From Actinomycetes bacterium (GTDB lineage: Bacteria > Actinomycetota > Acidimicrobiia > Acidimicrobiales > JABEUL01), in the NCBI GenBank assembly GCA_021777355.1, contig JAJYDO010000001.1, positions 2,941 through 66,940 on the forward strand: a stretch of DNA of 64,000 nucleotides, written 5' to 3'. Positions 3 through 51,946 of this stretch are shown here, piece by piece. How positions within the stretch are numbered: the stretch's first letter is position 1; each line of letters begins with the position of its first letter. The notes under the pieces were generated by a model, which was given only the letters and a program-made list of their open reading frames with translations, made no database searches and had not been told where the DNA came from. Made by a program: the position numbers and the translations under genes.

Positions 3-1061
3 ATTGAGGGCCATTTAATTGGCAAAGGTCAGCCCTGTTTTATTATCGCCGAAATCGGAGTAAATCATAATGGTGATCCGGGACTTGCAAAGGCCACTAT
101 TGATGCAATTCGGACAACGGGAGTTGACTGTGTAAAGTTCCAGACATTTTCTGCTGACGAATTTGTTAGTCCAAATGCCGCAGATTACGAATACATATCT
201 CAAGGCATTCAAGTAAAAGAGTCGATGCGAGATATGTTCAAACGCCTTGAACTGGATCGCAGTGAGCTTTCAAAGCTATTTGAGTTCGTTCGAGAGGCAA
301 ATATGGTACCGCTGTCAACTCCAGCTGATCGAGACGCTGTGGATCTTCTTGATGAAATTGGAGTTATGGCATACAAGGTAGGTTCGGATGACTTGATCCA
401 TATTCCGTTAATTAGTTACATAGCTTCTCGGGGCAAACCAATTATACTTTCAACCGGAATGGCTTATGCTGAAGACATAGATCGAGCAATAAAGGCCATT
501 GAACTAACTGGAAATGAGTCAATTGCTCTCCTGCATTGCGTATCCCAGTATCCGACCCCAGAGAGTGACGTAAATTTAGCAAAGATTATAGAGCTTAAGA
601 AAAGATACCAACGTGTTGTGGGATTTTCAGATCATTCCGTTGGCATCAATGCTTCGGTAGGCGCTGTGGCTTTAGGGGCGAGCATTATTGAACGTCACGT
701 CACATTGGATCACTCACTTCCCGGGCCAGATCATCGCTTTTCGCTCGACCCAGATGAACTTATAGCACTTGTTAAATCAGTGAGAGAAGTCGAGGCGATG
801 ATTGGATCTTCAAAGTTAATACCAACTGAAGCTGAGAGAAAAATGGCGGATGAGTGCCATAGATCGATAGTGGCTAAGGTTGATTTATGCTCCGGAGACG
901 TCATTAACGAAGAAAATATCTCCTATATGCGCCCAGGCGGTGGATTGCCGCCATACGAAATCAACAAAGTGATTGGGAAGGTCTTGAGATCGAATGTTCC
1001 TGCAGGATCTTATATCAATTTGGATAACTTGGATTCGATGACTCCAGATAATTCTGAATAA
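3..1061 (+). CDS. Nonulosonic-acid synthase, NeuB/LegI type (N-acetylneuraminate synthase family); 5' end cut by the window edge
   Basis: Frame 3 is open from nt 3 and is in frame with the listed ORF 225..1061. Nt 3-224 translate to IEGHLIGKGQPCFIIAEIGVNHNGDPGLAKATIDAIRTTGVDCVKFQTF, the N-terminal NeuB signature. The C-terminus has a SAF-like domain (VAKVDLCSGDVINEENISYMRPGGGLPP). Confidence 0.85.
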   Translation: MEGHLIGKGQPCFIIAEIGVNHNGDPGLAKATIDAIRTTGVDCVKFQTFSADEFVSPNAADYEYISQGIQVKESMRDMFKRLELDRSELSKLFEFVREANMVPLSTPADRDAVDLLDEIGVMAYKVGSDDLIHIPLISYIASRGKPIILSTGMAYAEDIDRAIKAIELTGNESIALLHCVSQYPTPESDVNLAKIIELKKRYQRVVGFSDHSVGINASVGAVALGASIIERHVTLDHSLPGPDHRFSLDPDELIALVKSVREVEAMIGSSKLIPTEAERKMADECHRSIVAKVDLCSGDVINEENISYMRPGGGLPPYEINKVIGKVLRSNVPAGSYINLDNLDSMTPDNSE

Positions 1062-36340: not shown

Positions 36341-37324
36341 ATGAATAGTTATGAGCAGCTTGACGACCAGGTAATCTTATTAACAGGAGGTACTGGATCT
36401 TTTGGACGCGCATTTGTTAAAGAAGTACTGCAAAAATCAAGCGCGACTATTCGCATATTCAGCCGAGATGAGTTGAAACAGCATGATTTGAGCCTAGAGT
36501 TAGAAAATTATAATGACCGGATCCGTTTTTTTCTAGGTGACGTTAGAGATAAGCCAAGGCTAACACGTGCTGCTAAAGGCGCTAATATTCTGATTCACGC
36601 CGCTGCCTTGAAGCAAGTTCCGGCTTGTGAGTACAACCCATTTGAGGCAGTCCAAACAAATGTAGTTGGTGCGGAAAATGTGGTCGACGCTGCCATAGAT
36701 GCTCAAGTAGCTAAAGTAATTGCCGTTTCTACCGATAAGGCGGTAAATCCAGTAAATCTTTATGGCGCCACTAAGTTATGTGCCGAAAAAATCATAGTTC
36801 AGGGAAATGCTTACGCATCTCGAAGCGAAACAAAACTGTCGTGCGTAAGATATGGCAATGTGGTTGGATCAAGAGGTTCCGTTTTACCTTTGTTTCTTAA
36901 GCAGAAAGCATCGGGGTGCTTTACAATTACAGATACTCGTATGACTAGGTTCTGGATTACATTACCCCAAGCAGTTGAACTTGTTATTACAGCGCTAAGT
37001 ATAATGAAGGGAGGAGAAATATTCATTCCTAAAATCCCATCAATGAAAGTTACTGATTTGGCAAGGGCAATATCTCCGGATGCCAAACAAAATGTGGTTG
37101 GCATCCGTGCCGGCGAGAAACTTCATGAGATCCTTTTGACTTCTGAAGAGAGCCGCCATGCGGTGGAACGTGATGGGATGTACGTTATTTTTCCAGAGCA
37201 TCCGTGGTGGGGAGTTGATCGATCAGATGAAAATGATATTGCACTCCCGGAGGGAATGGTGTATTCAAGCGATTCAAACGAACACTGGTTGACAAGCAAA
37301 GAAATTGAAACCCTGATTCGATGA
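36341..37324 (+). CDS. pseB: UDP-N-acetylglucosamine 4,6-dehydratase (inverting)
   Basis: ILLTGGTGSFGRAF, IFSRDELKQ and YGATKLCAEK (YxxxK). It is 327 aa and the first gene of the pse operon. Confidence 0.88.
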   Translation: MNSYEQLDDQVILLTGGTGSFGRAFVKEVLQKSSATIRIFSRDELKQHDLSLELENYNDRIRFFLGDVRDKPRLTRAAKGANILIHAAALKQVPACEYNPFEAVQTNVVGAENVVDAAIDAQVAKVIAVSTDKAVNPVNLYGATKLCAEKIIVQGNAYASRSETKLSCVRYGNVVGSRGSVLPLFLKQKASGCFTITDTRMTRFWITLPQAVELVITALSIMKGGEIFIPKIPSMKVTDLARAISPDAKQNVVGIRAGEKLHEILLTSEESRHAVERDGMYVIFPEHPWWGVDRSDENDIALPEGMVYSSDSNEHWLTSKEIETLIR

Positions 37325-38415
37325 TTCCTTATGGCCATCAATCAATTAATGATGACGACATTGCAGCTGTCACGCAGATCCTAAAAGGTGACTGGCTTAC
37401 TCAAGGACCAGCAGTTGAGGAATTCGAAGAAGCCTTATGCAGCTACACTGACGCTAAGTTTGCCGTTGTTTTTTCAAGTGGAACGGCGGCATTACATGCT
37501 GCTTGTGCGGTCGCCGGATTTGGGCCAGGAAACAGTATCTATACTTCGGCATTAACCTTTTCAGCCAGTGCGGCATGCGCCCTTTACGTTGGAGCTGAAC
37601 CTCGCTTTCTTGATATTTCTCCGGACACATTGAATATGGATTTAAGTCTTCTGCCTCCGAATGCCGATGGCCTAATTGCAGTTCATTATGCAGGGCTCCC
37701 TATTGACTTTGCAAAAATGCCCTATCGACCTGGAATAATAATTGAAGATGCATCTCATGCACTCGGCGCCATTGGGAAGAATGGCCCTATTGGTAATTGT
37801 GCGGATTCTGATATGTGTACTTTTTCCTTCCATCCCGTGAAAGCTATCACCACCGGCGAAGGTGGCGCGGTGACTACTAATTCAAAGGCTCTGGCTAATT
37901 CACTCAGAACTTTTAGAAGTCACGGAATTGTTCATAAACAAGAACAAGGTAATTGGTTCTATGAAGTCGATTCAATCGGTTTTAATTACCGTTTAACTGA
38001 TATTCAATCGGCTCTTGGCCTAAGCCAGCTAAAGAGATTGGATCGATTTATCGAAAGGCGCAACGAAATTGCGAGTCGCTATAGAGAGTTACTCCAAGAT
38101 CTTCAGGTGACTTGCCCCCCAAGTGCTCCAGTAGGCTCAACTCACGCCTATCATCTATTCCCGGTTAGGGTTAAAAATCGGCGAGCGATATTTGACTATT
38201 TGAGAAATGCTGGAATCGGTGCTCAAGTGCATTATATTCCTCTTTACAAGCATCCTTTATATGCTCGCACAGGAAGCCAGTTCCAGTTTCCTTCAACCGA
38301 AACAGTTTATGGCGAGCTACTCTCGTTGCCTATTTTTCCAGATTTAACAGATGCAGATCAGGATATAGTGATTGAAGTCCTTGGCAAAGCTTTGAATGAG
38401 GTACCTGATAAATGA
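37321..38415 (+). CDS. pseC: UDP-4-amino-4,6-dideoxy-N-acetyl-beta-L-altrosamine transaminase (DegT family)
   Basis: MIPYGHQSINDDDI...LTQGP N-terminus. The PLP-lysine block is FSFHPVKAITTGEGG, with the Lys codon at 37840-37842. ATGA overlap with pseB. Confidence 0.85.
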   Translation: MIPYGHQSINDDDIAAVTQILKGDWLTQGPAVEEFEEALCSYTDAKFAVVFSSGTAALHAACAVAGFGPGNSIYTSALTFSASAACALYVGAEPRFLDISPDTLNMDLSLLPPNADGLIAVHYAGLPIDFAKMPYRPGIIIEDASHALGAIGKNGPIGNCADSDMCTFSFHPVKAITTGEGGAVTTNSKALANSLRTFRSHGIVHKQEQGNWFYEVDSIGFNYRLTDIQSALGLSQLKRLDRFIERRNEIASRYRELLQDLQVTCPPSAPVGSTHAYHLFPVRVKNRRAIFDYLRNAGIGAQVHYIPLYKHPLYARTGSQFQFPSTETVYGELLSLPIFPDLTDADQDIVIEVLGKALNEVPDK

Positions 38416-38894
38416 ATGAGTTAACCCTTCATCTAGCTTCTGCAAAAGACGCCAGTTTAATATTCGGTATACGCAATCTGCCTGAGAGTATCAAGTTTAG
38501 TGGAACCGGGCAGCCCGTGACAGAAAACGAGCACTTTGTTTGGTTTGAAAATTTACTGAAGGATAAAGGTCGCAGACTTTGGATTTTAAACGACGGCATT
38601 GATGATATTGGATTCGTCAGAGTTGATTTGCTAGATGAGGCCGTGGGTCAGATTGGCCGGGTAAGTATTGGAATCAAAAGAGAGAGTCGCGGACATAATT
38701 ATGCGAGTCAAGCCCTCGGATTACTAACTTTGCAGCTTAAGGATATGCGTGACTTTTACGTTGAGAGATTAAGAGCTTTTGTGCATTTCGACAACATAGC
38801 TTCAGTAAAGACATTTAGAAAAGCCGGTTATGCAGAAGTTAACACTGAAAATCCATTTGTTACTTTCGAGATCCTATTGAGTAATGAGAGTTAA
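38412..38894 (+). CDS. pseH: GNAT N-acetyltransferase, PseH-like
   Basis: IFGIRNLPESIKF, EHFVWFENLL and NIASVKTFRKAGY. ATGA overlap with pseC, and the position between pseC and pseG is as expected. Confidence 0.75.
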   Translation: MNELTLHLASAKDASLIFGIRNLPESIKFSGTGQPVTENEHFVWFENLLKDKGRRLWILNDGIDDIGFVRVDLLDEAVGQIGRVSIGIKRESRGHNYASQALGLLTLQLKDMRDFYVERLRAFVHFDNIASVKTFRKAGYAEVNTENPFVTFEILLSNES

Positions 38895-39897
38895 TACGAC
38901 CAAGTCTGGGACACTATGGCTTAGAACAGGTTCATCACCCGATATTGGTTTAGGGCATCTTATGCGTACTTTAGCAATTGCAGAAAGCGCGCATAGGCAA
39001 AACCTGAGATGCTGCTTTGTAATTGACAACAATACCGATGTGGATCGTATACGAGCCGTTGCTGACAACGTTCAAACTGTATATTCAGTTAATGATGATA
39101 TGTGGACATCCTCAATATCGTCGGGAGATTTTGTCGTGTTTGACGGTTATGAATATAGTGGAGACAATTTTCGCCACGCTAATGATGCCGAAGCAGTCGT
39201 AGCTTGCTTTGACGATTTCGGGATCTCTTTCCCTGCCGGGGTTCTAGTTATTGATATTAGCGAAGCTGGTGGAGAAGGTCCCGTGGACAAGGATCATCAA
39301 AACTCTAGACATTCTAATCGGCTTGTAGGCCCTCATTACGCTCCGATTCGGAGCGAATTTTTTCCGTTCCGCCGCCACAGGGAAGATCCAATTGAAACAA
39401 TCGTAATAAGCCTCGGTGGTTCCGACATGGGAACGCTCACTCAGGAAGTTACACGTTCAATTCTCCATTTGAAAGATAAATATAACGTAGTAGCGATAAT
39501 CAACCAAGACAAGCTTGCCGGAAAGGAAGCAGACTGGCCAACTGATGTGGAAGTTATTTACTCGCCCCCTAGAGTCGGAGACATTTTTGATCGAGCCGAT
39601 TTAGGAATATGCACTGCAAGCACTACTGCTCTAGAAATGGCCTTCATGGGAATTCCAACATTACACTTGCAAGCGACTAATAATCAGAAGGCGATGGCCA
39701 ACATGCTTACAAAATATCAAATATCATATTCACTTGGAACCAATTTGGGAGATCTAGAACAAATTATTTACATGATGAATGAAAGTGCGATTCGATCGTC
39801 ATTGAGTAGGCGAGCATTGGAGACCATTGATGGAATGGGAGCCGAGAGGATATTAAAAACAATGGTCGAAGCACACCCTAATGTAAGGCGGGCATAG
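38884..39897 (+). CDS. pseG: UDP-2,4-diacetamido-2,4,6-trideoxy-beta-L-altropyranose hydrolase, PseG-like
   Basis: RTGSSPDIGLGHLMRTLAIAE N-terminus, SLGGSD, and a GT28-C-like fold length. It overlaps pseH by 11 nt. Confidence 0.78.
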   Translation: MRVNTTKSGTLWLRTGSSPDIGLGHLMRTLAIAESAHRQNLRCCFVIDNNTDVDRIRAVADNVQTVYSVNDDMWTSSISSGDFVVFDGYEYSGDNFRHANDAEAVVACFDDFGISFPAGVLVIDISEAGGEGPVDKDHQNSRHSNRLVGPHYAPIRSEFFPFRRHREDPIETIVISLGGSDMGTLTQEVTRSILHLKDKYNVVAIINQDKLAGKEADWPTDVEVIYSPPRVGDIFDRADLGICTASTTALEMAFMGIPTLHLQATNNQKAMANMLTKYQISYSLGTNLGDLEQIIYMMNESAIRSSLSRRALETIDGMGAERILKTMVEAHPNVRRA

Positions 39898-39900
39898 AAA

Positions 39901-40980
39901 TTGTCAAATGGAGATTTAATTTCAACGTGCGTGAAGATTGGAAGCAGCCGGGTTGGACTCGGTGAGGAGGCCTACATTATTGCCGAGCTTTCTGGAAATC
40001 ATCTTGGAAAACTTGACAATGCTATTGAGTTACTTCGCGCAGCTAAAAATGCTCGGGCTAACGCGGCCAAACTCCAGACATACACAGCTGACTCCATGAC
40101 AATAGATTCAGATGCTGATATATTTAAGCTACCCGAAACTTCGCTTTGGAAAGGTTACACTTACTACCAGCTATACAAAGAAGCTGCAACACCGGCTGAG
40201 TGGCTTCCAAAACTTAAAAAAGAAGCAGTTCGGCTGGGAATAGATCTTATTTCATCTCCGTTCGACAATGAGGCCGTTCGTATTCTAGATGAACTTGACT
40301 TTCCTGCTCTGAAGATTGCTTCGTTTGAAGTGGTTGACCTTAAATTGATTCAGAGTGCGGCATCCACCGGACGGCCAGTAATTATTTCAACAGGTATGGC
40401 CACGCTGGCAGAAGTTGATGCTGCCGTAAATGCCGCAAGATCAGTAGGCGACGGGGGAATAATTTTACTTTATGCCAGCAGCGCATACCCTGCGCCCACT
40501 TCCGACATGGCATTAAGGACTATCCCGCATATGATTAAGACGTGGAATTTGCCGGTTGGGTTGTCAGATCACACACAAGGAATACATGCGGCAGTCGCGG
40601 CAGTCGCTCTTGGTGCCAATGTTATTGAAAAACACTTGACTCTGCGACGATCAGATGGCGGGCCTGATGCAGAGTTTTCGATGGAGCCAGACGAATTTAA
40701 AAAGCTGGTGTCGTCAGTGCGTGAAGTCGAAAGCACATTAACGCGAGTTCGATATGGACCATCTCCTGGCGAAATAGTAAGCCTCAACTTTCGTCGCTCG
40801 CTTTTCGTCGTAAAGGATATGGAAGCAGGAGAAAAATTTAGCGAACAGAATGTACGCTCGATTCGGCCTGGTTACGGATTGCCGCCCAAGGAATGGAACC
40901 AAATTGAGGGCAGAGTTGCACGTGGTGCAATAAAGCGGGGAACCCCTCTTCAGTGGGATTTAGTAGGTGATATTGGTTAA
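39901..40980 (+). CDS. pseI: Pseudaminic acid synthase
   Basis: YIIAELSGNHLGKLDNAIELLRAAKNARANAAKLQTYTADSMT carries the QTY variant typical of PseI. A C-terminal SAF domain is present. The start is TTG 39901 or GTG 39931. Confidence 0.85.
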   Translation: MSNGDLISTCVKIGSSRVGLGEEAYIIAELSGNHLGKLDNAIELLRAAKNARANAAKLQTYTADSMTIDSDADIFKLPETSLWKGYTYYQLYKEAATPAEWLPKLKKEAVRLGIDLISSPFDNEAVRILDELDFPALKIASFEVVDLKLIQSAASTGRPVIISTGMATLAEVDAAVNAARSVGDGGIILLYASSAYPAPTSDMALRTIPHMIKTWNLPVGLSDHTQGIHAAVAAVALGANVIEKHLTLRRSDGGPDAEFSMEPDEFKKLVSSVREVESTLTRVRYGPSPGEIVSLNFRRSLFVVKDMEAGEKFSEQNVRSIRPGYGLPPKEWNQIEGRVARGAIKRGTPLQWDLVGDIG

Positions 40981-42805
40981 TCCTTCTCCTGAATCGTCAC
41001 CCGCTGGACTAATAATTGCTGCTGGAAGTGTGCTTCGACTAGATGAACTAGACCAGGTAATTGCAAATATTCCTGACACTTTAGAGATTATTGGATGGTG
41101 TGCATATCTTTCCCAAACGACAAGCTCGTGGGCGGAAAATACATTTTCTGTGAAATGCTTGGATTTAAATGCAATTTCAGGTGAAATTGATGAAAGCATT
41201 TGTGCAAAAGCAAGATCAGCAATGGATCTTTTTGGCAGTCAAGATGACCCAAAGCTCGAGGCTTTCGTCTTAGAGAAGCTCTATTCCGAAGCCGAAGAAT
41301 TAGTTCTGGCAACCGAAATGGTAAAACTGGTGAGAAGCCAGTTGAATTCGAAGGACCATAAGATTTATTTCCTGGGTAATGATAATAATGGATCCACCGC
41401 AGTAAAAACTGAGCTAGAAGATTTCTGCAATCTTGAGATACTTGAGCTTCCACCTAAATCTTCGCGTGACTTTAGGACTCGAGTAAATAAATATGTCCAG
41501 GGTCTCAGACTGGAAGGCAGAATCAGTCATGCAGTACCCGACCTGATTGAAAGAACCGATAATGAGTGGCGTTTTAGGACCTCATTGCCGCGGCAGTCAT
41601 TTTGGACGGAAAAGAAAAGTTATTATTCATTACCCAAGGGAGAGATATGTTTGCTGTCCTCCTACGCAAATAATTCAAGATCTATCTTAAACTTAAGTTC
41701 TTTATTTCCTCGCAATACTCACTGGATAGTGACTACTCTGTCAGCAAGACGAGCATTACCAAAGTCAGCCAAATGGTCTTGGCTTTGGGCGCATGCTAAC
41801 AAATCGCATCAGTGGTCCTGGCCTTTGCTGCCAACAGACAAGACTGAGATAAGTGCTCCTAAGTCAGACAGTGGACTAGGGAATGGTTGGCCAGCCAACT
41901 CCCAAACGTTATCACGCTGGGAAGAAATCGACAGGGCGTTGACCGCTCGAATGATGTCATGTTGGGACAATTATTTAGAGAAATATAGCCCAAGACTAGT
42001 TGTCGTGGCGAACCAATGGGACATTGAGGGAGCTTTTGCGCTCCGAGCAAAAGAGATGGGTATTGCGGTACTGCAAGTTTTTCATGGGGCAACAGGAGGA
42101 CATTTGTACCGTGAACACAAAGTAATTGGAGACTGCATGGTTATTCCTGGAAAGTACTGGGCCGACACGCTTCCAGTCGTTTCACGGCATAAAGCTCTCG
42201 TTGTAGGATCGACTCCTGACATCGCTAATAGCACCCCAGATGTTCCACGGCGCTTGACATTTTTCTCTACATTTATTTCGAACCAATCTCGCATGGTGGC
42301 AGAAGAAGAATATAAGTCTATGGTCAAGGCAATCTGTCATATTCGGAGCGTTTCAGGCTGGTTAGTGGTAATGCGCCCTCATCAACTTGAAAACCCTTCT
42401 CTATTTTTAGAATATTGGCGAAATAGCACCACCGATGATCCTCCGATTATACTTTCAGCACATAAAGAAACTCTCATTGAAGCAGTCAAGAGTACCGGAG
42501 TTGCACTTACGTTCCCTTCTTCAATACTTCTTGCTTGTGCATCAGGTGGAGTGCGTGCAACGATACCTGGGTGGATACCTTTCGAGTGGCGTGAGGGTGT
42601 AGAGTCAGTGTCTAATGGAAAATTGGCCGAATTTGCTTCTAATCCCGAAGATATAGGAAAGATTCTGGAGGCGCAGATTCTGGCTGCCGAACATGATGGC
42701 CCAATTGATTCTGGCGATTCTGACTTACTGGCAAGATTTGGAGTTGGACACGACGAATTCCGTGACTGGATATCGTCGACAACTGCAGGATCTAAAAGCA
42801 AGTAA
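40967..42805 (+). CDS. 612-aa orphan protein, possible GT-B-like nonulosonic-acid transferase
   Basis: The ORF overlaps the pseI 3' end by 14 nt. It has no TM or signal sequence. The C-terminal half has alternating beta/alpha character, with VFHGATGG and VVMRPHQLENP blocks that recall the HP motif of capsule/sialyl-type transferases. This is a weak inference. Confidence 0.65.
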   Translation: MILVNPSPESSPAGLIIAAGSVLRLDELDQVIANIPDTLEIIGWCAYLSQTTSSWAENTFSVKCLDLNAISGEIDESICAKARSAMDLFGSQDDPKLEAFVLEKLYSEAEELVLATEMVKLVRSQLNSKDHKIYFLGNDNNGSTAVKTELEDFCNLEILELPPKSSRDFRTRVNKYVQGLRLEGRISHAVPDLIERTDNEWRFRTSLPRQSFWTEKKSYYSLPKGEICLLSSYANNSRSILNLSSLFPRNTHWIVTTLSARRALPKSAKWSWLWAHANKSHQWSWPLLPTDKTEISAPKSDSGLGNGWPANSQTLSRWEEIDRALTARMMSCWDNYLEKYSPRLVVVANQWDIEGAFALRAKEMGIAVLQVFHGATGGHLYREHKVIGDCMVIPGKYWADTLPVVSRHKALVVGSTPDIANSTPDVPRRLTFFSTFISNQSRMVAEEEYKSMVKAICHIRSVSGWLVVMRPHQLENPSLFLEYWRNSTTDDPPIILSAHKETLIEAVKSTGVALTFPSSILLACASGGVRATIPGWIPFEWREGVESVSNGKLAEFASNPEDIGKILEAQILAAEHDGPIDSGDSDLLARFGVGHDEFRDWISSTTAGSKSK

Positions 42806-42935
42806 TTGTGAACAACTTTGAATTAATTTTGTATCATTTGTGACTTGTCAAAGGTGCACCAGGACCAAGAACCAGGAAGTCAGATCTAAAATAGAGTGAG
42901 TATTTAGACTGAAGAAAAGGGCAAAGTATTTAAGC

Positions 42936-43169
42936 ATGACTAGTTTCGAGTTCCAAGATAGTTTACTGAGTGAAAGTAATTTTGATTCCTGCATACTTCT
43001 CAACTTTCGATGTCACGCTATAAGTCTTTTTGCACGACAATCAAAGATAATCATTCAACCAGATGGAGAGTTGACGTTTTCACGGTTTGAAATTCAAAAA
43101 GCACAAGGTGTCCTGCAAGAACGAATTTTCCTAGAGTCGAAGCGTAAAATTCGGGGAGTTAGATTTTGA
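42936..43169 (+). CDS. Hypothetical small protein (77 aa)
   Basis: It is the only ORF in the 360-nt spacer, and it overlaps the TTG start of the next gene by 4 nt. It has no recognisable motif. Confidence 0.3.
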   Translation: MTSFEFQDSLLSESNFDSCILLNFRCHAISLFARQSKIIIQPDGELTFSRFEIQKAQGVLQERIFLESKRKIRGVRF

Positions 43170-44308
43170 GCGGATGGAAAATTCCGTTGATTACCCCTGA
43201 AGTAGATGATCAGGATGCACGCGCTGTCTACGACGTAGTCTTAGCAGGGGATGTGGCCGTCGGTCGCGAGCAGGAGCATTTTGAGAGAATCGTTACCGAT
43301 ATCACGGGGGCTAAATTTGGGGTTTCTTTATCAAGCGGTACCGCAGCTCTACATTTGGCGCTTCTCGCGTTGGATGTGGGCCCAGGAGATGAAGTTATAG
43401 TCCCCGATTTGACATATATTGCCTCAGCCAACCCGGTCCGTTACGTAGGTGCGGCACCTGTTCTTGTCGACATCAAACCAGATGACGGAAATGTGGACGT
43501 AGACATTCTTAACGATTTTATAGAGGAGCGGGTCAGAAGAAACTATATTCTCCCAAAAGCAATTATTGCCGTTCATGTTTTAGGAGAACCATGTGACATG
43601 GAGAAGTTATTGGCTATATCGAAAAATTACGGAATTCCCATTATCGAAGATGCCGCCCAATCTTTTGGGGCAACTTACGGGGCAGGCAAATTAGCTTATA
43701 AAGCGACTGGGTCCATTGGAAAGTTCGGAGTGCTTTCTTTCAGTGGAAACAACATAGTTACCACAGGCGGAGGTGGCATGTTGCTGACTAATGACGGAGC
43801 TCTTGCTTCAAAGGTAAGACATCTCTCCACCCAAGGCAAGCTCGCCAACAATAACTTTGACCACAATGTAGTAGGCTATAACTACCGACTTTCCAATATT
43901 GCTGCCACACTTGGAATTGTCCAGGCAAAGAAATTATCTGCTTTTATCAAAGCTAAACGCTTAATTTACTACCGTTATAGAGAGAATCTGGAACTCATAA
44001 GTAACATTAGGATGATCGCCATAAACCCAATCAACAATGGATCCTGTTGGCTCTCGACAGCCGTATTTCAAGATAAAAAAACTCGAATTAAAGTCGAGGC
44101 AAGCTTGAGATCTAATGGCATTGAGTGCAGTACACTCTGGACGCCAATCCACAAGCAAGCTCCATATATTGAAGCACCCTTTGTAGGTGCAGGCGTTTCC
44201 GTCGACTTGGCAGAAAGATCTCTAAGTCTGCCGAGTTCCACTTCCCTGAGAGAATCGGAGCAGAAGGAAGTTATCGACACAATTATTTCGACGCTTGTTC
44301 ACATTTAG
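43166..44308 (+). CDS. DegT/DnrJ/EryC1-family sugar aminotransferase-like protein lacking the conserved PLP lysine
   Basis: LSSGTAALHLALLAL, GDEVIVPDLTYIASAN and IIEDAAQSFGA. The lysine block reads LSFSGNNIVTTGGGGM, with AAC (Asn) at 43751-43753 where the family has Lys. Confidence 0.85.
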   Translation: MSGWKIPLITPEVDDQDARAVYDVVLAGDVAVGREQEHFERIVTDITGAKFGVSLSSGTAALHLALLALDVGPGDEVIVPDLTYIASANPVRYVGAAPVLVDIKPDDGNVDVDILNDFIEERVRRNYILPKAIIAVHVLGEPCDMEKLLAISKNYGIPIIEDAAQSFGATYGAGKLAYKATGSIGKFGVLSFSGNNIVTTGGGGMLLTNDGALASKVRHLSTQGKLANNNFDHNVVGYNYRLSNIAATLGIVQAKKLSAFIKAKRLIYYRYRENLELISNIRMIAINPINNGSCWLSTAVFQDKKTRIKVEASLRSNGIECSTLWTPIHKQAPYIEAPFVGAGVSVDLAERSLSLPSSTSLRESEQKEVIDTIISTLVHI

Positions 44309-44812
44309 CGGCTAAACACCATGGTTGTTATTTGACGGCATAAATAGTAGAAAATCTAGTCATAGTTTCTGAAAAACAGCTATTTCGGATGAAGAATTCA
44401 AAAGCTACCCAACTATTTAGCCGAGTGTTGTGCGAGCTTTAACTTGATGTTTTTCACCAAAAGTGTTTTTCGTAGTCAAATAGATTGATTCGAATTTCAA
44501 TTAACTAACTCGCAGGCATGAGCTAATCAGATATGTCATCTTTGTAGCAAATCGGGCTAATTTTCGACTTTTTGCAGCATTGGCCCTCCGTCTGAAAATT
44601 TGACATAAATTGGTACCAAGGTTCGAAACGGGTATCAACCACTAAAGTGCAATGACTACCAGGCAAAATTTTGGCTATTCGACCAATTTATGAATATATG
44701 CACATAAATATTTAGAAATATCTTTTAAGGTCGATATAGTATTTGGGTTATGCAATTGGCCTGAATAGGCCAAGTCCTGATTTAAAGATGGTAAAGATAG
44801 GACAATATCAAA

Positions 44813-46870: not shown

Positions 46871-47476
46871 TGTTCGGCTGGCTGTATAAAAAAGTACTAT
46901 AGGTAATTAGTTGCTAGGAATTCTTTTCCCGGTAACTTATTAAAATTAAACCGAATCGGAATTCTAGCTTTGCTTCATCAACGAATTTGTGTTGCCAACT
47001 TCTATACCCGATGGCACTTGGCTTGGCGTTGACAATGCTCTTTTTGTAAAATTTTGTACTTAAAAAGTTAAGAAATGCACCTAGAACTAGTCTTTAGAGA
47101 AGCGCAGAATCCTCTATTTGAATTTAACCACTATTGACTAGTTTATGCTTGAGTAAAATTTGTCCCTCATAAATGGGGTGAACTGCAAGATTGAGTTTTT
47201 TTGGCTGCTTCTGCATCTCGTTTGGCAAGGCTGCATCATTTTGCATCTAGTTTTTAGGGGCTTTCGGCGCGTCATCTGTTTTAGCTCTTTAGCAAGGAAC
47301 TCTCAATTCAAATAATTTTCTCTTGGAACTTTGTCCATTTACTCTGGTTTCGCTAACTTTTTGGGTCTAATCGATTTGAGTATATCGAAATTAAAAATAT
47401 TCTAAAATTAAAACTTGGCATATTTGTTGCTATATGCCACATTGCGCGTTCTGAATTTGGCGGATCAAATTATAAT

Positions 47477-48277
47477 TTGATGATAAACTACCCTGGCATG
47501 GACACTGTAAATCAAGGCGAAAGAATTATCGCTGTTTTGCAGGCCCGAATGACTTCAACAAGACTTCCCGGGAAAGTCCTAATGCCCTTAGCTGGAGCGC
47601 CACTGTTATCTCGAGTCATTGAGCGCGTTTCGCGAATTTCTGGTTTAGACGGGATTGTCGTAGCTATTCCCAGTGGAGATAAGCAACTTCCGATAGTGGA
47701 ACTTGTGGCGGGCATTCCAGAAGTTGACCTAGTTTCCGGATCGGAAGACGATGTTCTTGACCGCACTTTATATGCTGCAACCTCGGCAGGCGCTACTGCC
47801 ATTGTTAGAATTACCACAGATTGCCCATTGATAGATCCAGAAGTAAGTAGTGCTGTACTGGGCGCATTTCGCAAGCTGGGGATTTCATATGCCAGAACCG
47901 CTATTTCACATGGTTATCCTATGGGATTTGATACTGAGGTGATTTCAGTTGACGCTCTGAAAATTGCTGCAAGCGAGTCCAGTGACCCGTACGAACGAGA
48001 GCATGTTACCCCTTTTATATGGAGACAACCTGAGCGGTTTGAGTCAATTGTTTTATCATGCATGCCAGATCGAAGACACTGGCGGCTTACAGTAGATACA
48101 CCTGAAGATTATCGACTCGTATCTACAGTTTACGACGAACTAGCTAACGTTTCGCCTAGCTTTGGGATGAGAGAACTAGATGCTCTTTTTAAAAGACGAC
48201 CCGAACTTCTTGAACTGAACGCTGGCACCGCATCAACTCCATACATTGGTTTACCCTCTTCATATGCATCCTCGTAA
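47477..48277 (+). CDS. SpsF-type cytidylyltransferase (CTP_transf_3 family)
   Basis: IIAVLQARMTSTRLPGKVL, VRITTDCPLIDP, YPMGFDTEV, REHVTPFI and RLTVDTPEDY are blocks typical of SpsF/FlmC-like nucleotide-sugar cytidylyltransferases. The start is uncertain (TTG 47477 or ATG 47498). Confidence 0.82.
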   Translation: MMINYPGMDTVNQGERIIAVLQARMTSTRLPGKVLMPLAGAPLLSRVIERVSRISGLDGIVVAIPSGDKQLPIVELVAGIPEVDLVSGSEDDVLDRTLYAATSAGATAIVRITTDCPLIDPEVSSAVLGAFRKLGISYARTAISHGYPMGFDTEVISVDALKIAASESSDPYEREHVTPFIWRQPERFESIVLSCMPDRRHWRLTVDTPEDYRLVSTVYDELANVSPSFGMRELDALFKRRPELLELNAGTASTPYIGLPSSYASS

Positions 48278-48829
48278 TTAGGTCGAACTGGCATCCGCTG
48301 TTAAGTTCAACTAGAAATAATTTAAAGGGTTTGTGATCTAACTTAAACCGGCATTCTCAAATAGAGCTACTGGGTCGTCCTATGATTGGCAAAACGGGCA
48401 AATTATCATTGTTGATCTCTCATGGGCCATAATCAATGACTTGGTTTCATATCGGTCTGAAGGGTAAATGTGGGATGTTCAAGAAATGATACGCAGGATG
48501 CATTTGATATTTAGCTTTTACCCAACAATTTTTTGGATGGAGAGTAATTTGAAAATGCGGAGTTTTGAATTTTGCCAGTGAATTTCAAGGAGTTTACAAA
48601 GTCAAATCTTTTCAACCTAAGACTATTTTCATTCTGGCCGATAAGCGGTAATACTTGGCCTCATTACGACTTATTCCTAAGGTAAGAAGGGTGGATCTGG
48701 AGTTTCTTAGGCATTTTAGGAGTGGCAATACTTTTTGCTCTTTTGGGTTTAAAGAACACAAATTGGCTATTTTGTCAACTAGCATGAGGATAGTTATTGG
48801 AAATACAAGCAACGGAAAGTTATTTTTAA

Positions 48830-50011: not shown

Positions 50012-51946
50012 ATGGGTACATCAGCGGTAAAAGATAAGGATCGCTTAGGTTCACTAATAGGGGGGCATATTGGAGTATCACAAGCAAGTTTTGATTCAAT
50101 AGCTTGGGTGGTAGCAATAGTTTGTGCAACCTATGCGAGACTTGATTTTAATGAAGATCTGGTTAGTTGGCTAGGTGTTTCAATAATTGCTCCCATTGCA
50201 ATACTGGCGCAAATAGACTCGGGCATATTCATGGGGCTTTACAGTGGTCGCTGGCGATTTGGGAGCTTTGAAGAAGTAGGAGCATTAGTAAGAACAGTAT
50301 TGGTTTGTACCTCGGCAGTATTTTTGGCTGATGCATTATTACTTCCGGGCCGCGCCATTCCGCTTGGTTCAGTGTTGATTGGCGCGGCCTTAGCATTTTT
50401 ATTTATGTGTTTTGGGCGTTGGTGGTGGAGGGCGAGAACTGAGCGTATTAGTTCCTTTAGTGGCAATCGACCAAACAAGCTTGTTATTTTTGGAGCAGGA
50501 GAAGCTGGGTATCAAGCTCTGGCCGCAATCCGACGAGATTCAAGTTGTGGTTGGGAGCCAGTTGCTCTCATCGACGATGATCCTTTAAAAAGGAACTTGA
50601 GAATTTTTGGAGTTGCAGTTGTCGGAAAAAGTACAGAGGTGGAAGAGATCTTAAGAAAATATGACGCTAACTCATTGTTAATTGCCGCACCGAGTGCACC
50701 CCTTGGGGTCGTGACAAACCTTCTTGAGACTGCAACTCGTCTCAAGATTGCCGTTAAAGCAGTCCCTAATGCAGGAAGACTGTTTGGAGATGCATTTGAT
50801 GTTGAGGACATCCAAGAGATCCAACCTGAAGATCTCCTTGGTCGCGAACCGGTGAAAATTGATGACAGTGAAATTCGTTCTTTTATAAAGGGAAAAAGTG
50901 TACTTATAACAGGCGCTGGAGGGTCAATTGGCTCTGAGATTGCCAGACAAATACTAAAGTTTGAACCGGGATCATTAACCCTTCTAGATCGGGATGAGTC
51001 TGCACTTTTAGGCGTTCAGCTATCAATTGAAGGCAGAGCTTTGCTTGATTCACCTTCATTAGTCTTGGCAGACATAAGGGATGCAAAAGGAGTGGAGCAA
51101 GTCTTTAAAGATCGCAAACCCGATGTAGTATTTCACGCAGCTGCCCTAAAACACCTGACACTCCTTGAGCGATATCCACTTGAGGCTTGGAAATCAAATG
51201 TAATTGGAACTATAAATGTGTTAAATGCTGCGGTTGCCAGTGGGGTAACGGGGTTTGTAAACATCTCGACAGATAAAGCAGCTGATGCCTCAAGCGTATT
51301 AGGATTTTCAAAACGCATTGCCGAACGCCTTACTGCCAGCATCAATATAAAAGATGCCACATACGTTTCCGTTAGGTTCGCAAATGTCTTGGGAAGCAGG
51401 GGTTCGGTGCTGGAGGTATTTAGAGCTCAAGCCGAGGCGGGAAAACCTCTTACAGTAACCGACGCTAATGTGACCCGATTTGTTATGACTATTCCGGAGG
51501 CTGTACGTCTGGTTACTCAAGCGGCTGCAATAGGCAGGTCGGGAGAAGTTTTGGTTTTGGACATGGGGACGCCAGTAAAGATCCTGGATATAGCCAAACA
51601 CTATGCTTCTAGGAGAAATCCTCCATTAGACATTATTTTTACAGGGCTTAGACCAGGGGAAAAGCTTCATGAAGTGCTTTTTGGGGAAGGGGAACCTGAT
51701 GATAGGCCATTTCACCCAAAAGTCAGCCATGTGAATGTCCCGCCACTGAGCACTGAGAGCGCCCAAAGTGCATTTTCCTTGCTGCTTGGCGGTGATGGAG
51801 AAGATCCGGAAAGTGACTGTGACCCGATGGCAATTCGTAAAGTTTTGGCCTCAATATGTGCTATTCCCTCTGAGCTGACTCAAAACTGTGAAAATTTGGT
51901 TGAAAACTCCATCCAGGGTGGTTCAAATTTGACTAAAGTATTGTAA
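50012..51946 (+). CDS. Membrane-anchored polysaccharide biosynthesis protein CapD/PglF/WbpM type (UDP-GlcNAc 4,6-dehydratase-like)
   Basis: Four N-terminal hydrophobic segments and two Rossmann motifs (IFGAGEAGYQ and VLITGAGGSIGSEI), followed by an SDR-extended C-terminus. Confidence 0.85.
   Translation: MGTSAVKDKDRLGSLIGGHIGVSQASFDSIAWVVAIVCATYARLDFNEDLVSWLGVSIIAPIAILAQIDSGIFMGLYSGRWRFGSFEEVGALVRTVLVCTSAVFLADALLLPGRAIPLGSVLIGAALAFLFMCFGRWWWRARTERISSFSGNRPNKLVIFGAGEAGYQALAAIRRDSSCGWEPVALIDDDPLKRNLRIFGVAVVGKSTEVEEILRKYDANSLLIAAPSAPLGVVTNLLETATRLKIAVKAVPNAGRLFGDAFDVEDIQEIQPEDLLGREPVKIDDSEIRSFIKGKSVLITGAGGSIGSEIARQILKFEPGSLTLLDRDESALLGVQLSIEGRALLDSPSLVLADIRDAKGVEQVFKDRKPDVVFHAAALKHLTLLERYPLEAWKSNVIGTINVLNAAVASGVTGFVNISTDKAADASSVLGFSKRIAERLTASINIKDATYVSVRFANVLGSRGSVLEVFRAQAEAGKPLTVTDANVTRFVMTIPEAVRLVTQAAAIGRSGEVLVLDMGTPVKILDIAKHYASRRNPPLDIIFTGLRPGEKLHEVLFGEGEPDDRPFHPKVSHVNVPPLSTESAQSAFSLLLGGDGEDPESDCDPMAIRKVLASICAIPSELTQNCENLVENSIQGGSNLTKVL

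Follow-up and report, generated by a model that had tools for sequence, protein, structure and literature searches.

The Schiff-base lysine of DegT-fold aminotransferases anchors the cofactor and serves as base in the 1,3-proton shift, and stalled complexes are routinely trapped with Lys-to-Ala variants of PglE, perosamine synthase and ArnB. The GDP-perosamine synthase of Caulobacter crescentus (3BN1, 3DR7) has this lysine in its natural form, and its lysine-less form (3DR4) is a laboratory mutant only, used as a ligand trap. PglE from Campylobacter jejuni (1O61; K184A external-aldimine complex, 4ZTC) has the lysine and is active, and its substrate is a 4-keto-6-deoxy-HexNAc nucleotide sugar. 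The PMP-dependent sugar 3-dehydratases ColD and E1 share the DegT fold without a Schiff-base lysine. The position is held by a His that is conserved clade-wide and acts as the general acid/base in the established mechanism. To our knowledge, in every lysine-less lineage described so far a whole clade shares the replacement residue. Asn at the ColD position is known to us only from H188N, reportedly a laboratory mutant that traps bound sugar, and literature searches for this mutant or for a natural Lys-to-Asn DegT protein returned nothing usable.

An uncultured Acidimicrobiales bacterium is the host of a DegT gene with Asn at the Schiff-base lysine position. The gene lies in the window, the whole 64,000-nt stretch of DNA that was analysed, as an intact plus-strand ORF (43166-44308) that starts with TTG and encodes 380 amino acids. 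A GGGGAG element that reads as Shine-Dalgarno-like (43153-43158, plus strand) is located 7 nt 5' of the start codon. The Pfam DegT_DnrJ_EryC1 profile (PF01041) matches the ORF with 311 bits over profile positions 3-359 of 360. The AlphaFold2 model, built from an input of 46 sequences, has a pLDDT of 94.2 and a pTM of 0.92, with residues 221-240 as the sole soft region. Foldseek searches with this predicted model give TM scores of 0.88-0.91 to PglE, GDP-perosamine synthase, ArnB and WecE. The full-length profile match and the fold-type I structure identify the Asn196 protein as a member of the DegT/DnrJ/EryC1/StrS superfamily, as the initial annotation had proposed.

The top NCBIfam match is the LegC family (Cj1320-type; TIGR04181) at 324.9 bits, followed by PseC at 254 bits. 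The curated TIGR04181 cut-off of 420 bits is not reached by the Asn196 protein, by its sister P0002 (355.6 bits) or by the homologue in G002, a genome of the same family (246 bits). LegC and the Asn196 protein have the SF-x-GN-K-xx-TTGGGGM motif type in common, and the LegC flavour read earlier from GN(K)IxTTGGGG agrees with the best family match. The Asn196 protein differs from LegC in its score below 420 bits, in having Asn for the catalytic Lys, in the absence of LegB, PtmE and LegG, and in its long separate branch shared with one sister. The best sequence match of solved structure is the Caulobacter GDP-perosamine synthase (E 1.5e-61, approximately 35% identity, TM approximately 0.9). PglE has the same fold (TM 0.91) with 30% identity, and the PseC encoded in the same neighbourhood belongs to the same superfamily with 34% identity. 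Matches to ColD/E1 are weak (E approximately 1e-18); the Asn196 protein belongs to another subfamily, and its Asn is confined to one species. These results identify the product of ORF 43166-44308 as a LegC/perosamine-synthase-type DegT-fold protein.

The AAC codon for Asn196 (43751-43753, plus strand) occupies the column of the catalytic lysine in both phmmer and MAFFT alignments. The lysine block of the protein reads LSFSGNNIVTTGGGGM, and the corresponding block of PseC (37321-38415) reads FSFHPVKAITTGEGG. Asn196 had been placed exactly opposite Lys174 of PseC, and the alignments bear this out; Lys174 is encoded by AAA at 37840-37842, as described. In the phmmer search against PDB chains, Asn196 falls opposite Lys186 of the 'fgnkiittgegg' segment of 3BN1/3DR7, and the deposited K186A mutant 3DR4 has Ala in that column, marking it as the Schiff-base position. 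The MAFFT alignment with the 120 best homologues has Lys at this position in 120/120, and the invariant flanks of the column (S191, F192, G194, N195, T199 and G201-G204) are all present in the query. The closest lysine, K186, is 10 residues upstream, and most homologues have Arg in its column; the protein has no substitute lysine near Asn196. An alignment shift that would move the lysine onto another residue had been considered, and none of these alignments produced one. Asn196 at the lysine column is not a chance placement: the family shows no variation at this position, and no nearby lysine could take its place. The protein does not have the Schiff-base lysine of a functional nucleotide-sugar aminotransferase. 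The cofactor contacts D162, S191, G58 and T59 are invariant in the homologues and are present in the Asn196 protein; the roles of the aspartate at the PLP ring nitrogen and of the Ser/Thr/Gly contacts to the phosphate are described (PMC5936713).

A search of 5.8 billion proteins returned a single close relative, P0002, with 68% identity, and all others have at most 45%. P0002 comes from an Acidimicrobiales MAG (G001) of the only other species in the genus, and its block is ISFNGNKVVTTGGGGM. The codons of the congener are GGA AAC AAA GTT, compared to GGA AAC AAC ATA in the Asn196 gene, so that AAA and AAC at 43751-43753 are separated by one third-position A/C difference. The two proteins are sisters with a support of 0.994 on a stem of 0.99 substitutions per site, and the terminal branch of the Asn196 protein is 1.7 times as long as that of P0002 (0.394 and 0.234). 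The other nearest homologues of the Asn196 protein have 40-45% identity. Back-translated patterns were used to scan one genome per species from 185,579 species. The pattern G-N-N-x-x-T-T-G-G-G-G-M had 0 matches in these genomes, and S-F-x-G-N-N-x-x-T-T-G-x-G-G had 1 match, a chance hit outside the DegT family. This hit is an Asn/Ser/Thr/Gly-rich repeat surface protein of 1061 residues from a Micrarchaeota MAG (L044:632-3817, minus strand) and was rejected, as was the cluster mate P0123, an unrelated 55-residue fragment placed there by a clustering artefact. Conservation of Asn within a clade, the check proposed with the initial annotation, is not found: Lys is present in 120/120 homologues and in the 68% identical congener, and there are 0 DegT Asn variants in approximately 185,000 species. 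As judged from these sequences, Asn at the lysine position is private to one species and is not a clade feature.

The nearest lysine-bearing homologues on long contigs are located in canonical legionaminic-acid clusters in 3/3 cases. The G002 homologue is also in a Leg cluster, arranged NeuC-LegB-LegC with a 4-nt overlap and a LegB that scores 367 bits. LegB overlaps the LegC start in 4/4 of these loci (the three homologue loci and G002), and NeuC is upstream of LegC in 4/4. PtmE, a CBS-nucleotidyltransferase, is encoded in 3/3 homologue loci and a LegH-like hexapeptide acetyltransferase in 2/3, with NeuB/LegI and a cytidylyltransferase (LegF) nearby in all three. The LegC-like gene of the window is not paired with LegB or the other Leg genes. 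It follows a complete pseudaminic-acid module, pseB-pseC-pseH-pseG-pseI and a gene for a 612-aa GT-B protein (36341-42805, plus strand), whose genes are tightly packed and overlapping. PseB, PseC and PseI exceed their equivalog cut-offs. PseC (435 bits against a cut-off of 423.5) is the module's own aminotransferase, keeps Lys174 and is translationally coupled in the operon. In contrast to this compact operon, the LegC-like gene stands alone between long spacers of 360 nt on its 5' side (42806-43165) and 504 nt on its 3' side (44309-44812).

The six long spacers of the locus were searched by tblastn with LegB, PtmE, LegH, NeuC, LegI and LegF from four related loci, and only noise was returned (E > 0.05). 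The best match to the LegB model in the host genome is a generic SDR at 146 bits, compared to 367 bits for the G002 protein. The host genome has no PtmE-type gene, and no second Epimerase_2 gene (LegG, NeuC-type) accompanies the only one present, an ortholog of a core gene. The genome encodes a single LegH-like acetyltransferase, on contig C10 and unlinked to the LegC-like gene. The host MAG is 93.6% complete, which leaves the absence of these partners unproven.

Several other features of the region were recorded. An orphan plus-strand ORF of 77 amino acids (42936-43169), the sole ORF of the 360-nt spacer, has a stop codon that overlaps the TTG start and sits where the relatives have LegB. It is called a gene in the public record and has a low GC3 of 0.295. 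No homologues were found in 1.84 billion representative proteins, and the ORF has no similarity to the congener LegB remnant; it is probably spurious or very young. Four spacers of 360-607 nt without a detectable gene remnant (42806-43165, 44309-44812, 46871-47476 and 48278-48829) follow the pse operon in succession, and the region looks like a patchwork of separately inserted genes. The sole cytidylyltransferase near the operon (47477-48277) has a weak KdsB-type match and matches no PseF model at E <= 0.001. The cytidylyltransferases beside the LegC-like gene in the two congeners were rejected as orthologues, with 25% identity. A 644-aa protein encoded at 50012-51946 is a predicted membrane-anchored UDP-GlcNAc 4,6-dehydratase of the PglF/CapD type, which would make the kind of 4-keto sugar that PglE uses. 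As a rule, the 4-keto product of such dehydratases has to be processed further by a partner aminotransferase or reductase. PseC and the lysine-less protein are the only DegT proteins encoded in the host genome. There are three NeuB-family synthases in the genome. One is PseI, and another is encoded at window 3-1061, directly 5' of ilvB/ilvN/ilvC, with 363 bits to TIGR03569, under the cut-off. The third (G000 contig C10:36634-38306; L051:9635-11307) is paired with a NeuD/PglD-type acetyltransferase, and this pair has counterparts in G001 and G002.

The congener G001 has an intermediate arrangement. NeuC is followed by a 149-aa ORF and then by the LegC-like gene with Lys. The 149-aa ORF (contig C147, L040:195-644) matches only the last 60 LegB positions and is a C-terminal LegB remnant. 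A pseI-like gene is present in three frame-shifted pieces with stop codons (contig C126, L048:2941-3903, minus strand) and adjoins the gene for a 615-aa orthologue of the GT-B protein with 69% identity. The G001 island looks like a decaying nonulosonic-acid island, with the qualification that the MAG is 72% complete and assembly errors are possible. This intermediate state points to a Leg module that is being dismantled in the genus.

Private changes were scored at columns with a conservation of at least 95% among the other 119 homologues. The Asn196 protein has 11 such changes (A52G, F84Y, E165Q, L167F, N193S, K196N, A224G, Y231F, D234N, L254A and R322S) and its sister has 3 (binomial p = 0.057), and a Fisher test of conserved versus variable columns gives p = 0.058. 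This excess is no more than marginal (p approximately 0.06), and three-taxon counts of private changes over all sites are balanced (28 in the Asn196 protein and 24 in the sister, not significant). Several of the 11 changes fall in active-site elements. Ser193 (AGT, 43742-43744, plus strand) is three residues before the lysine position and is Asn in 120/120 homologues. Gln165 (CAA, 43658-43660, plus strand) lies in the IEDAAQ block three residues after the retained PLP-N1 aspartate Asp162 and is Glu in 120/120. The segment Phe231-Asp-His-Asn234 (43856-43867, plus strand) carries the private changes Y231F and D234N in a flexible loop with a model pLDDT of 63-76. Ser322 (AGT, 44129-44131, plus strand) is Arg in 120/120 homologues and in perosamine synthase. 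In the Spr1654 structure the residue at Lys-3, which contacts the sugar ring and the amino donor in characterised sugar aminotransferases, lies beside both, and the flexible loop becomes ordered over the substrate (PMC5936713). In perosamine synthase, positions 84 and 193 are Tyr and Phe; going by these aligned residues, some of the 11 changes do no harm in other members of the family.

The LegC-like genes of the two congeners (window 43166-44308 and L040:641-1783) encode proteins with 68% identity and have a pN of 0.195 and a saturated pS of 0.82. The GT-B pair (window 40967-42805 and L048:1104-2951) has a pS of 0.59. Across 121 ORF pairs, the two congeners have a median protein identity of 90% and a median pS of 0.46. 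The Asn196 gene was therefore rejected as an accelerated ortholog: a pS of 0.82 against the median of 0.46 indicates that the copies predate the species split and that their low identity is mostly age. The saturated or raised pS values indicate that the glycan-island alleles predate the species split and suggest that they were exchanged or separately acquired. Such alleles are often older than species splits. The modest pN together with the saturated pS indicates purifying selection over most of the history of the gene. Approximately 4% of random point mutations in ORF 43166-44308 would yield a stop codon, and the intact 380-codon frame means that any neutral phase was short and that the gene did not drift along the whole terminal branch. 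Either the lysine was lost recently, or there is ongoing selection for something besides transamination.

The initial annotation had offered three options for the substitution: altered PMP chemistry, a pseudo-enzyme or a single-base error. The last would mean a base-call error, or a minority or strain variant in the consensus, with Lys as the true or dominant allele of an ordinary LegC-type aminotransferase. AAC is one base from AAA/AAG and the genome is a MAG, but the identical protein is present in three assemblies, the window's MAG (105-kb contig), GCA_027342685.1 (51-kb contig) and Logan SRR13170410, and the DNA of the other two matches the window with 100% identity over 13.1 kb and 6.8 kb. 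An assembler artefact at the codon is unlikely because the same sequence was recovered in three separate assemblies, and three different assembly pipelines produced the same base. This agreement leaves the independence of the reads unproven, since all three may share the same reads, and an exact-pattern scan of JGI metagenome contigs with the third base free found no further copies around the codon that could serve as an independent contig. The protein has ten more private changes at near-invariant columns, one of them (N193S) only three residues from Asn196, and errors cannot account for all of these; even with Lys restored the enzyme would be without its LegB partner. An error or minority variant is accordingly very unlikely. 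A new PMP-dependent chemistry without the Schiff-base lysine, by analogy to ColD/E1, would probably act on the 4-keto sugar from PseB or from the PglF-like dehydratase (50012-51946). Producers of 4-keto-6-deoxy-HexNAc are encoded 6-7 kb away on either side, and several substrate-contacting residues changed along with the lysine. However, Asn cannot replace the His of ColD/E1 as general acid/base, and the nearest relatives of the protein are conventional LegC enzymes from conventional Leg clusters. The Asn form is a singleton without the clade-conserved His of ColD/E1, which argues against a new class of that kind with a clade-wide replacement residue. This chemistry appears the least probable of the options, and the finding is no evidence for a new enzyme class.

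The main rival to an inactive relic is a retained pseudo-enzyme that folds, binds PMP or PLP and a nucleotide sugar non-covalently, and is kept for a non-catalytic role. It might, for example, hold or hand a nucleotide sugar to the adjacent GT-B transferase, or sense nucleotide sugars. The intact ORF of 380 codons, its good ribosome-binding site and the high-confidence predicted fold fit such a role and count against a relic. All contacts to the cofactor phosphate and ring except Lys are kept (G58, T59, D162, S191, N239 and R241), and stable ligand complexes have been crystallised for the Lys-to-Ala variants of PglE, perosamine synthase and ArnB. The private changes are concentrated in parts of the protein that serve catalysis and substrate binding rather than at core positions (PMC5936713). 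The LegC-like gene and the GT-B gene are both kept near each other in the two congeners with 68-69% identity, which also counts against a relic and could reflect a retained role of the LegC-like gene. In the congener, though, the two genes are on opposite strands beside broken genes, an arrangement that looks like shared decay rather than a functional pair. The Asn form occurs in a single population without conservation, and because Lys is retained in the sister, a role of this kind could only be very young. A retained pseudo-enzyme is therefore possible but unlikely. It is less likely still that Asn196 is both genuine and maintained, with PMP or PLP held non-covalently in a protein that acts as a partner of the GT-B protein, a candidate nonulosonic-acid transferase, or as a Schiff-base-free catalyst. 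If the Asn form were maintained, it would be the first natural Asn-type lysine-less variant of the PLP fold, beside the His-type dehydratases; the evidence does not favour this.

The singleton status of Asn, the absent pathway partners and the extra private changes favour the inactive-relic form of the pseudo-enzyme option over altered chemistry and over an error. The reading that we prefer, with modest confidence, is that the Asn196 gene is a catalytically dead leftover of a dismantled Leg module. The gene would have descended from a legionaminic-acid-type 4-aminotransferase (LegC) and would have lost its lysine by a real third-position A-to-C change (AAA/AAG to AAC). Transaminase function would have gone with it, as expected by analogy from the established role of the Schiff-base lysine. 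The Leg module would have been dismantled in the genus, with loss of the substrate supplier LegB and the other Leg-specific genes, and the complete neighbouring pse operon, with its own aminotransferase, would have no need of a LegC-like gene. We infer that the gene is drifting rather than serving in a new role. Since the reading frame remains unbroken, the gene was probably inactivated only recently compared with its age.

Automatic annotation pipelines will label the protein an active aminotransferase, and they may credit the cell with a legionaminic-acid or bacillosamine step of which it is probably incapable. If the preferred reading is true, the locus would record the remodelling of a surface-sugar island in which Leg was taken apart and Pse was kept, and the LegC-like gene would be a leftover caught after the loss of its catalytic residue and before its reading frame breaks.
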